Shown here one piece after another: positions 9,447 to 14,670 of a DNA stretch of 64,000 bases (its first letter is position 1; every line of letters starts with the position of its first letter). The notes beneath the pieces were generated by a model. That model had not been told where the DNA came from. It ran no database searches and was given only the letters and a program-made list of their open reading frames with translations. A program made the translations under genes and the position numbers. The DNA is taken from the NCBI RefSeq assembly GCF_003334785.1, contig NZ_QOWV01000002.1, one strand, 5' to 3'. This DNA is from Escherichia coli (GTDB lineage Bacteria; Pseudomonadota; Gammaproteobacteria; Enterobacterales; Enterobacteriaceae).

Positions 9447-10805
9447 ATGTTGAGTATTTTTAAACCAGCGCCACACAAAGCGCGCTTACCTGCCGCGGAG
9501 ATCGATCCGACTTATCGTCGATTGCGCTGGCAAATTTTCCTGGGGATATTCTTTGGCTATGCGGCTTACTATTTGGTTCGTAAGAACTTTGCGCTTGCTA
9601 TGCCTTATCTGGTTGAGCAGGGATTCTCACGCGGTGATTTAGGTTTTGCCCTTTCGGGGATCTCGATTGCTTATGGATTTTCGAAATTCATCATGGGTTC
9701 GGTATCGGATCGCTCGAATCCGCGCGTTTTCCTGCCCGCAGGTTTGATTCTGGCGGCGGCAGTGATGTTGTTTATGGGCTTTGTGCCATGGGCGACGTCG
9801 AGCATTGCGGTGATGTTTGTACTGTTGTTCCTCTGCGGTTGGTTCCAGGGGATGGGGTGGCCGCCGTGTGGTCGTACTATGGTGCACTGGTGGTCGCAGA
9901 AAGAACGTGGCGGCATTGTGTCAGTGTGGAACTGTGCGCACAACGTCGGTGGTGGTATTCCGCCGCTGCTGTTCCTGCTGGGGATGGCCTGGTTCAATGA
10001 CTGGCATGCGGCGCTCTATATGCCTGCTTTCTGCGCCATTCTGGTGGCATTATTCGCCTTTGCGATGATGCGCGATACCCCGCAATCCTGTGGCTTGCCG
10101 CCGATCGAAGAGTACAAAAATGATTATCCGGACGACTATAACGAAAAAGCGGAACAGGAGCTGACGGCGAAGCAAATCTTCATGCAGTACGTACTGCCGA
10201 ACAAACTGCTGTGGTATATCGCCATCGCCAACGTGTTCGTTTATCTGCTGCGTTACGGCATCCTCGACTGGTCACCGACTTATCTGAAAGAGGTTAAGCA
10301 TTTCGCGCTAGATAAATCCTCCTGGGCCTACTTCCTTTATGAATATGCAGGTATTCCGGGCACTCTGCTGTGCGGCTGGATGTCGGATAAAGTCTTCCGT
10401 GGCAACCGTGGGGCAACCGGCGTTTTCTTTATGACACTGGTGACCATCGCGACTATCGTTTACTGGATGAACCCGGCAGGTAACCCAACCGTCGATATGA
10501 TTTGTATGATTGTTATCGGCTTCCTGATCTACGGTCCTGTGATGCTGATCGGTCTGCATGCGCTGGAACTGGCACCGAAAAAAGCGGCAGGTACGGCAGC
10601 GGGCTTTACCGGGCTGTTTGGTTACCTGGGCGGTTCGGTGGCGGCGAGCGCGATTGTTGGCTACACCGTGGACTTCTTCGGCTGGGATGGCGGCTTTATG
10701 GTAATGATTGGCGGCAGCATTCTGGCGGTTATCTTGTTGATTGTTGTGATGATTGGCGAAAAACGTCGCCATGAACAATTACTGCAAGAACGCAACGGAG
10801 GCTAA
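9447..10805 (+). CDS. glpT: Glycerol-3-phosphate:phosphate antiporter (MFS)
   Basis: 452-aa ORF recognised as GlpT. Confidence 0.95.
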
Positions 10806-10809
10806 TGGC

Positions 10810-11886
10810 ATGAAATTGACGCTGAAAAACCTTAGCATGGCGATCATGATGAGCACTATAGTCATGGGAAGCAGTGCAATGGCGGCGGACAGCAACGAAA
10901 AAATAGTCATCGCCCATCGCGGTGCCAGTGGATATTTGCCGGAGCATACGCTGCCAGCAAAAGCGATGGCGTATGCGCAGGGAGCGGATTATCTGGAACA
11001 GGATTTGGTGATGACCAAAGACGACAATCTGGTTGTTCTGCATGACCATTACCTCGATCGTGTTACTGATGTTGCCGATCGTTTCCCGGATCGGGCGCGC
11101 AAAGACGGTCGTTACTACGCGATAGATTTCACGCTGGATGAAATTAAGTCGTTGAAATTTACCGAAGGTTTCGATATTGAAAACGGTAAAAAAGTGCAGA
11201 CTTATCCGGGGCGTTTCCCAATGGGTAAGTCCGACTTCCGGGTGCACACCTTTGAAGAAGAGATTGAATTTGTTCAGGGGTTAAATCACTCTACCGGGAA
11301 AAATATCGGTATTTATCCAGAAATCAAAGCGCCGTGGTTCCATCATCAGGAAGGGAAGGATATTGCGGCAAAAACGCTGGAAGTGCTGAAGAAATATGGT
11401 TACACCGGTAAAGACGATAAAGTTTATTTGCAATGTTTTGATGCTGATGAGCTGAAGCGTATTAAGAATGAGCTGGAACCCAAAATGGGCATGGAGCTCA
11501 ATCTGGTACAGCTGATTGCCTATACCGACTGGAATGAAACGCAGCAGAAACAGCCGGATGGAAGCTGGGTTAATTACAACTACGACTGGATGTTTAAGCC
11601 GGGTGCCATGAAACAGGTGGCGGAATATGCAGATGGTATTGGTCCGGATTACCATATGTTGATTGAGGAGACATCGCAGCCGGGTAATATCAAACTCACT
11701 GGCATGGTGCAAGATGCTCAGCAGAATAAACTGGTAGTGCATCCTTATACCGTGCGGTCAGATAAACTGCCTGAATACACTCCTGATGTGAATCAGTTAT
11801 ATGATGCTCTGTATAACAAAGCGGGTGTAAATGGGCTGTTTACTGATTTCCCTGATAAGGCAGTAAAATTTCTTAATAAAGAGTAA
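10810..11886 (+). CDS. glpQ: Periplasmic glycerophosphodiester phosphodiesterase
   Basis: ORF 10753..11886; start set at the ATG at 10810 (MKLTLKNLSMAIMMSTIVMGSSAMA… signal peptide), 4 nt after the glpT stop; 358 aa. Confidence 0.94.
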   Translation: MKLTLKNLSMAIMMSTIVMGSSAMAADSNEKIVIAHRGASGYLPEHTLPAKAMAYAQGADYLEQDLVMTKDDNLVVLHDHYLDRVTDVADRFPDRARKDGRYYAIDFTLDEIKSLKFTEGFDIENGKKVQTYPGRFPMGKSDFRVHTFEEEIEFVQGLNHSTGKNIGIYPEIKAPWFHHQEGKDIAAKTLEVLKKYGYTGKDDKVYLQCFDADELKRIKNELEPKMGMELNLVQLIAYTDWNETQQKQPDGSWVNYNYDWMFKPGAMKQVAEYADGIGPDYHMLIEETSQPGNIKLTGMVQDAQQNKLVVHPYTVRSDKLPEYTPDVNQLYDALYNKAGVNGLFTDFPDKAVKFLNKE

Positions 11887-11893
11887 TGTTACT

Positions 11894-11920
11894 GCAGGAT
11901 GGCGTTCATGCGCCATCCTG
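11894..11920 (+). terminator. Putative terminator hairpin after glpQ
   Basis: gcaggatggcg…cgccatcctg inverted repeat immediately after the glpQ stop; the T-tract is weak and displaced. Confidence 0.35.
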
Positions 11921-11927
11921 TCTCATA

Positions 11928-12179
11928 TCAAATTTTTCCAATCGCCACTAATTGTTCCATGCACATTTGTAGTAAAAACAGTGGACTGCCTTCTACCGGC
12001 TTTTCTTTAGCCAGCAACGAAATCTGTCGATAGAAAGTTGGTTCGAGAGGAACGGAACACAATTCACCTGCAATGCTTTTCAGCGTTAACTCTGGTTGTA
12101 AGGCGATGCCTAATCCCTGTCGAATAAAATTTATCGCTGTATCCGCCTGATTAAATTCACATTTTATCTGCTGGGCGCA
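11928..12179 (-). pseudogene. yfaH: Remnant of a LysR-family regulator (C-terminal substrate-binding domain fragment, no start codon)
   Basis: The minus-strand frame is open for 84 codons with no ATG and bounded by stops; it translates to …QQIKCEFNQADTAINFIRQGLGIALQPELTLKSIAGELCSVPLEPTFYRQISLLAKEKPVEGSPLFLLQMCMEQLVAIGKI*, which resembles a LysR effector-domain tail. Confidence 0.5.
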
Positions 12180-12348
12180 CTATTAGTGGTAGTGGCTGGT
12201 GGAATCTATGCGCTGCAAATGAAGGGTAAAAGCGGTGTCAAGCTAGTAGTGGCAAAAGAAATTCATTAATACGACACGTTTCATTAAGATTTTCCTCAGG
12301 TAACCACCTATAGTCATTGTCGTTAATAAAAATGACAGGCGATAGGGT

Positions 12349-12999
12349 ATGGCAGTTTCAGCAAAGTACGACGAATTTAATCACTGGTGGGCAACAGAGG
12401 GCGACTGGGTTGAAGAGCCTAACTATCGCCGTAATGGTATGAGCGGGGTGCAATGCGTCGAGCGCAACGGCAAAAAGCTGTATGTAAAGCGCATGACGCA
12501 TCATCTGTTTCATTCCGTACGTTATCCGTTCGGCCGACCAACGATTGTCCGTGAGGTTGCGGTAATTAAAGAACTGGAACGGGCCGGTGTCATCGTGCCG
12601 AAGATCGTTTTTGGTGAAGCGGTGAAAATTGAGGGTGAATGGCGAGCGTTGCTGGTGACTGAAGATATGGCGGGGTTCATCAGCATTGCTGACTGGTATG
12701 CCCAGCATGCAGTATCGCCTTATTCTGACGAAGTACGGCAAGCCATGTTGAAAGCAGTGGCGCTGGCGTTTAAGAAAATGCATAGCATTAATCGTCAGCA
12801 TGGCTGTTGTTATGTTCGCCATATCTATGTGAAAACAGAAGGTAATGCAGAAGCTGGTTTTCTTGACCTGGAGAAAAGTCGTCGCCGCTTGCGTCGCGAT
12901 AAAGCGATTAATCATGACTTCCGCCAGCTGGAAAAATATCTGGAGCCAATCCCCAAAGCGGACTGGGAGCAGGTGAAAGCGTATTACTACGCCATGTAA
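12349..12999 (+). CDS. inaA: Weak-acid/pH-inducible protein, Kdo/WaaP-like lipopolysaccharide kinase family
   Basis: 216-aa ORF recognised as InaA. Confidence 0.85.
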   Translation: MAVSAKYDEFNHWWATEGDWVEEPNYRRNGMSGVQCVERNGKKLYVKRMTHHLFHSVRYPFGRPTIVREVAVIKELERAGVIVPKIVFGEAVKIEGEWRALLVTEDMAGFISIADWYAQHAVSPYSDEVRQAMLKAVALAFKKMHSINRQHGCCYVRHIYVKTEGNAEAGFLDLEKSRRRLRRDKAINHDFRQLEKYLEPIPKADWEQVKAYYYAM

Positions 13000-13052
13000 T
13001 CGTTGTAGGCCAGATAAGACGCATAAGCGTTGTATCTGGCACTACAACCAAT

Positions 13053-14437: not shown

Positions 14438-14460
14438 GAGTGTGTCCTGTTGGGAGTTTA

Positions 14461-14662
<202 letters not shown>

Positions 14663-14670
14663 TCTCAATA

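Follow-up and report, generated by a model that had tools for sequence, protein, structure and literature searches.

By homology, the spacer between glpQ and inaA consists of the remnants of two genes, a LysR-type regulator and a neighbouring membrane transporter, and a single 1,879-bp deletion between 8-bp direct repeats almost certainly accounts for both fragments. An earlier, sequence-only reading of the window (the whole 64,000-nucleotide stretch of Escherichia coli DNA that was analyzed) had taken the spacer for decayed coding DNA rather than a simple intergenic region, and the homology of both of its open frames to intact genes bears this out. Two of the checks that it had proposed, a homology search of both frames and a comparison with genomes in which the LysR gene is intact, gave a LysR match on the minus strand, an MFS transporter match on the plus strand, and a reconstruction of the deletion from the O157:H7 locus. 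The region is ordinary, and its pseudogene part is already known under the name yfaH, which the K-12 reference lists among its pseudogenes. What is added here is the MFS origin of the hydrophobic plus-strand frame, the exact deletion at the 8-bp repeat, and the frequencies of the alleles. The significance is small, that of a textbook pseudogene scar.

The gene order in the window, glpT-glpQ-[spacer]-inaA-yfaE-nrdBA, is E. coli K-12-like. glpT occupies 9447-10805, glpQ ends at 11886 (stop codon 11884-11886), and the intact inaA gene lies on the plus strand at 12349-12999 according to both the open reading frame list and the RefSeq annotation; yfaE and nrdB follow beyond it on the minus strand. 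The spacer between glpQ and inaA is 462 bp. An 801-bp segment around the remnants matches strain LR-64-2 at 100% identity and MG1655 at 99.9%. The window is thus a K-12-like chromosome, distinct from MG1655 at base 12132.

The minus-strand frame runs from 12182 down to 11928, stop to stop, with 83 sense codons and a stop codon (CAQQIKCEF...LVAIGKI). Its 11928-12170 part is what remains of the 3' end of a LysR-type regulator gene, encoding residues 213-292 of 292 and including the stop codon. BLASTP against the intact O157:H7 protein gives 70 of 80 residues identical over this range (88%, E 4e-48), and the frame also matches the Pfam LysR_substrate domain (PF03466, E 1.2e-6) at model positions 131-189 of 209; the domain is incomplete, though homology is established. 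The intact ortholog carries an HTH_1 domain (PF00126) at residues 3-63 and a whole LysR_substrate domain. HTH_1 is absent from the frame in the window, which begins at LysR residue 213. PGAP labels the piece [quoted passage not shown]. The sequence-only reading had recognized a yfaH-like LysR effector-domain tail; the tail is confirmed by BLASTP and Pfam, and the piece is more exactly yfaH (b2238) itself. In NC_000913.3 yfaH is annotated as a pseudogene at 2349687-2349893, equivalent to 11928-12134 of the window on the minus strand. As in MG1655, its place is the glpQ-inaA spacer, on the opposite strand to both genes, and 341 of 342 nucleotides are identical over 11928-12269.

The single difference is at position 12132, T in the window and C in MG1655, so that ATA stands where MG1655 has ATG. 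The historical 68-codon yfaH open reading frame begins at this ATG, which the short frame lacks in the present strain. C is found at this base in MG1655 and all the other remnant strains examined, and T in the window; the missing minus-strand start is specific to this strain. The absence of a start was noticed from the letters of the window because base 12132 turns the yfaH ATG into ATA. It holds for the upstream part of the frame, in which the window has no ATG, but not for its 3' end, near which two in-frame ATGs occur within ...LQMCMEQ....

The NCBIfam model NF007272 (PRK09729) is a 68-aa "equivalog" named "hypothetical protein". It matches residues 226-292 of the intact LysR protein (L002:2890-3765) with 145.4 bits against a curated cut-off of 139. 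The model appears to have been built on the YfaH pseudogene fragment and can therefore propagate a spurious protein name.

The plus-strand frame at 12114-12269 (SLSNKIYRCIRLIKFTFYLLGALLVVVAGGIYALQMKGKSGVKLVVAKEIH and a stop) has 51 sense codons and a stop codon, is preceded by TAA at 12111-12113, and ends in ...GGIYALQMKGKSGVKLVVAKEIH. It had been described as a TM-like segment followed by a basic tail, and that description holds: since the frame matches MFS residues 363-396, the hydrophobic segment corresponds to the final TM helix of an MFS transporter and the basic tail to its C-terminus. From Y18 onward, 32 of 34 residues (94%, E 1e-18, BLASTP) are identical to residues 363-396 of the intact 396-aa O157:H7 protein, and the MFS remnant with its stop codon occupies 12163-12269. 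In the intact protein, residues 14-346 and 213-375 match Pfam MFS_1 (E 2.4e-46). With nothing but residues 363-396 left, the window does not hold a full MFS_1 domain with its complete set of TM helices. PGAP labels 12165-12269 "hypothetical protein, incomplete, missing N-terminus", and this unexplained plus-strand product is now identified as the MFS transporter C-terminus. An assignment of the plus frame to the K-12 gene ypaA was considered and dropped; NC_000913.3 annotates only yfaH between glpQ and inaA.

The homology of the plus frame to the transporter begins only at residue 18. The upstream part, 12114-12162 (SLSNKIYRCIRLIKFT), is an accidental extension of about 16-17 stop-free codons antisense to the LysR remnant, and the three-way alignment places it against LysR, not MFS, sequence of the intact locus. 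The first 17 codons are a chance opening in antisense LysR, not ancestral plus-strand coding sequence. The frame had also been said to lack an ATG; this is correct for its 5' part, but an in-frame ATG is present at 12219, near the 3' end, with 16 codons left after it.

The intact locus of O157:H7 strain OK1 shows what has been lost. From glpQ to inaA it carries a 356-aa orphan gene on the minus strand, the 292-aa LysR gene on the minus strand, a 151-bp gap, and the 396-aa MFS gene on the plus strand, with 80 bp from its end to inaA. The LysR and MFS genes (WP_000176738.1 / WP_000660231.1) are divergently transcribed and share the 151-bp promoter region between them. The octamer TTTATCTG occurs exactly twice in the 4.4-kb intact region, at L002 position 3122 in LysR and 5001 in MFS, 1,879 bp apart. 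In the three-way alignments the window tracks the LysR side as far as ATTTTATCTG; from TTTATCTGCTGGGCG it tracks the MFS side. The sole retained copy of the 8-bp microhomology, at 12163-12170, marks the junction. This is a microhomology scar, with the repeat present at both intact end points and one copy at the junction. One deletion is proposed, comprising LysR codons 1-212, the 151-bp shared promoter region and MFS codons 1-361, because the window abuts both sides within one copy of TTTATCTG.

In the proposed history, the ancestral order would have been glpQ on the plus strand, the LysR-type regulator on the minus strand, the 151-bp divergent promoter region, and the MFS transporter and inaA on the plus strand. 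A LysR/permease pair may also lie in this region in Salmonella. An illegitimate, microhomology-mediated deletion of the RecA-independent type between the two TTTATCTG repeats would then have removed the intervening 1,879 bp. It would have left the last 80 LysR codons on the minus strand and the last 34 MFS codons on the plus strand, joined tail-to-tail-wards at 12163-12170. Judged from the scar, the mechanism was probably replication slippage or illegitimate recombination at the microhomology. An 8-bp direct repeat at both intact ends with one copy kept is what is found in short-repeat spontaneous deletions in E. coli, and nothing is unusual here. The junction is identical in all nine remnant-carrying sequences examined (eight strains and the window). 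The identical junction and the shared derived substitutions beside it argue for a single old event that later spread.

A LysR-type regulator with a divergently transcribed target gene is the classic LysR arrangement. The intact O157:H7 locus conforms to it, being a divergent pair with a 151-bp shared control region, and the remnant in the window shares homology with the C-terminal third of the effector-binding domain. Unlike such a system, the window lacks HTH_1, about two thirds of the effector domain, the promoter and the body of the target gene; with these deleted, the remnant cannot work as a regulator. Of the transporter, the window holds the last TM helix and C-terminus of an MFS_1 protein, only 34 of 396 residues, which have neither a start codon nor a promoter.

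The distribution of the locus was examined in 5,426 complete E. coli genomes. The K-12-type junction, detected with a 120-bp junction probe at least 80% covered, is found in 3,121 genomes (57%), the intact central LysR-promoter-MFS segment in 1,219 (22%), and a 202-bp "empty" spacer with neither gene in 1,058 (19%). The three alleles sum to 5,398, and the rest includes IS1-associated rearrangements. In the genomes examined (O157:H7, GN25, VCSW5, and O145 RM9872) the intact pair is always at this locus. The result is a clean three-allele presence/absence polymorphism, a possible lineage marker.

Two of the alleles have features of their own. Ninety-five genomes carry a divergent intact LysR-MFS allele, about 87-88% identical to that of O157:H7 (L016:2188-4421, O145 RM9872). 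In this allele the glpQ 3' end and the hairpin that follows it also differ, and O157:H7-like sequence is found at the 3' end of MFS and in the inaA leader, which suggests that the allele is old or imported, with a recombination break point inside the pair. In the "empty" allele of strain ERP001 (L003:1188-1389), homology resumes at window position 12251, 19 bp inside the MFS 3' end, at about 87% identity; the middle ~70 bp of this spacer has no match in the intact locus. The "empty" allele may represent a second, older deletion.

Decay of the remnants was followed in nine distinct remnant-carrying genomes (eight strains and the window), which were chosen to span the identity range and not at random. 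PGAP notes and translations show that the LysR frame is further disrupted in five of the nine: premature stops in STEC367, O111:H2 12A and PT109, and 1-bp deletions in P15-385 and Eco_70239. The pN/pS ratio of the LysR remnant against intact alleles is 0.59-1.19, compared with 0.14 for inaA and 0.20 between two intact LysR tails; the underlying counts are small (9-21 differences) and the ratios are indicative only. The pN of the remnant, 0.04-0.08, is similar to the synonymous divergence of inaA (~0.06). The MFS tail protein is identical among the three intact alleles examined, and the replacements V>I, A>K/T, L>P and V>A occur in remnant-bearing strains only. No stop or frameshift is found in the 34 codons of the MFS tail in the nine remnant sequences, a short target in a small sample with which constraint is still compatible. 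Taken together, both remnants are very probably functionless and drifting.

Whether either strand still yields a small protein or a regulatory RNA had been left open by the sequence-only reading. The answer suggested here is mostly negative, because the frames decay, the native promoter is gone, and searches for a start with a Shine-Dalgarno sequence, an Rfam family, a promoter or a terminator gave no match. A consensus scan for sigma-70 promoters and intrinsic terminators over 11800-12450 on both strands found none. A search of 11700-12500 against Rfam 15 at a permissive E-value gave RmaA as the best match with 24.1 bits (threshold 57), followed by Ysr197 with 14.6 bits (threshold 167).

The only structured element near yfaH is a G+C-rich, terminator-like hairpin at 11894-11921. 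It lies immediately after the glpQ stop and 6 nt from the LysR remnant stop, between the convergent glpQ and LysR, and has a predicted folding energy of -22.5 kcal/mol (z = -5.0 against shuffles). Its stem is retained in the ERP001 allele, with changes on both arms. The terminator scan missed this hairpin because it has no adjacent T-run. In a K-12 strain, qRT-PCR has detected yfaH RNA, with a 7.7-fold change in one mutant background (PMC9600279). Some transcription of the region must therefore occur, for which read-through presumably suffices. The literature on yfaH otherwise yielded incidental uses only, as a marker-insertion site (PMC2714960) and within gene lists (PMC9501238).

The conserved part of the spacer is at its right-hand end. 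From 12251 onward, the last 19 bp of the MFS open reading frame and the 79-bp inaA leader form the sole spacer part conserved in all three allele types. A putative inaA promoter, which is not part of the remnants, begins right after the MFS stop at 12271-12314 on the plus strand and consists of a marbox-like 20-mer (12271-12290) and a -10-like TATAGT (12309-12314). The 20-mer is the best match in 12150-12350 to a marbox consensus, with 11 of 14 specified positions, and is a lead only. Searching the whole window with a marbox consensus and up to 2 mismatches gave 16 matches against 17 expected, none of them upstream of inaA. The inaA promoter is read as setting the right-hand limit of tolerated deletions, as the allele alignments would suggest.

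An alternative is that the remnant DNA is kept as a regulatory element, either as upstream promoter DNA of inaA or as a cis-antisense or 3'UTR-derived RNA of glpTQ. The retention of the sequence from 12251 on even in the "empty" allele, the marbox-like site with its -10-like hexamer, and the detectable yfaH RNA are all in keeping with this, but the conserved part covers just the last ~19 bp of the remnants. The other ~320 bp (11928-12250) are missing in the 1,058 "empty" genomes, in which inaA is intact, the best Rfam score is far below its threshold, and the remnant accumulates substitutions as fast as the synonymous sites of inaA. A regulatory role is thus very unlikely.

A second alternative is that the plus frame has taken on a new role as a small membrane protein, the old MFS TM12 serving as a single-pass helix, in a product of about 27 aa from GTG 12186 or a longer one from a non-canonical start. 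The frame is open in all nine remnant sequences examined, and its product, a hydrophobic helix with a basic tail after it, is of a kind typical of small inner-membrane proteins; read-through from glpTQ could transcribe it, since the hairpin at 11894-11921 has no T-run. Against this, the native promoter and start are deleted, no AGGAGG-like sequence is present 5-12 nt upstream of any in-frame ATG, GTG, CTG, ATT or ATC within 12114-12266, and TTG and ATA do not occur in frame in that interval. Replacements including L>P accumulate in the remnant strains, whereas the intact alleles are invariant, and the fused frame is missing from 42% of E. coli genomes. One published ribosome-profiling table of novel translated small open reading frames has no entry at MG1655 23495xx-23498xx, and yfaH, inaA and glpQ are not named in the text of the ribosome-profiling papers on small ORFs that were consulted. 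Exaptation of the frame is accordingly rated as extremely unlikely. The same slim chance is given to the broader proposal that TM12 and the basic tail are translated from a non-canonical start or that a yfaH read-through transcript modulates glpTQ or inaA; if true, 57% of E. coli would carry a new gene or regulatory RNA that arose from a deletion scar.

An origin of the two frames in separate events, such as IS-mediated deletions or independent truncations, could draw on the IS1 insertions and IS1-associated rearrangements seen at the locus in some strains, but it is almost certainly wrong, as the window carries no IS scar, the LysR and MFS sides abut within one 8-bp repeat found at both intact ends, and the sampled remnant sequences all share one junction.

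Besides the LysR-MFS pair, the spacer varies in a second segment. In O157:H7 OK1 (L002:1170-2880) the interval from the glpQ hairpin to the LysR stop holds a 1.7-kb AT-rich segment, with 33.5% G+C compared with 43-50% in its neighbours. This segment is absent from the window, where it would be located at about 11921/11922, and is found in 1,046 of the 5,426 genomes. The 356-aa orphan gene that it carries is without a match in Pfam, NCBIfam or PADLOC; the annotations of GN25 and MEI3A give it as frameshifted, and in others IS1 interrupts it. The segment occurs with intact and with deleted LysR-MFS, and all four combinations exist. In strain 2020C08-115 (L007:2287-3077), IS1 lies directly upstream of inaA with nudI/ais/arnB on the far side, and an IS1-associated rearrangement or deletion has taken out glpQ and the whole spacer at this position.

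Elsewhere in the window, six-frame translations contain repeated ...RLIRPT... peptide motifs at about 14440-14668, in the gap between nrdB and nrdA, and at about 13000-13050, after inaA. These motifs suggest repeated palindromic (REP-like) DNA elements.
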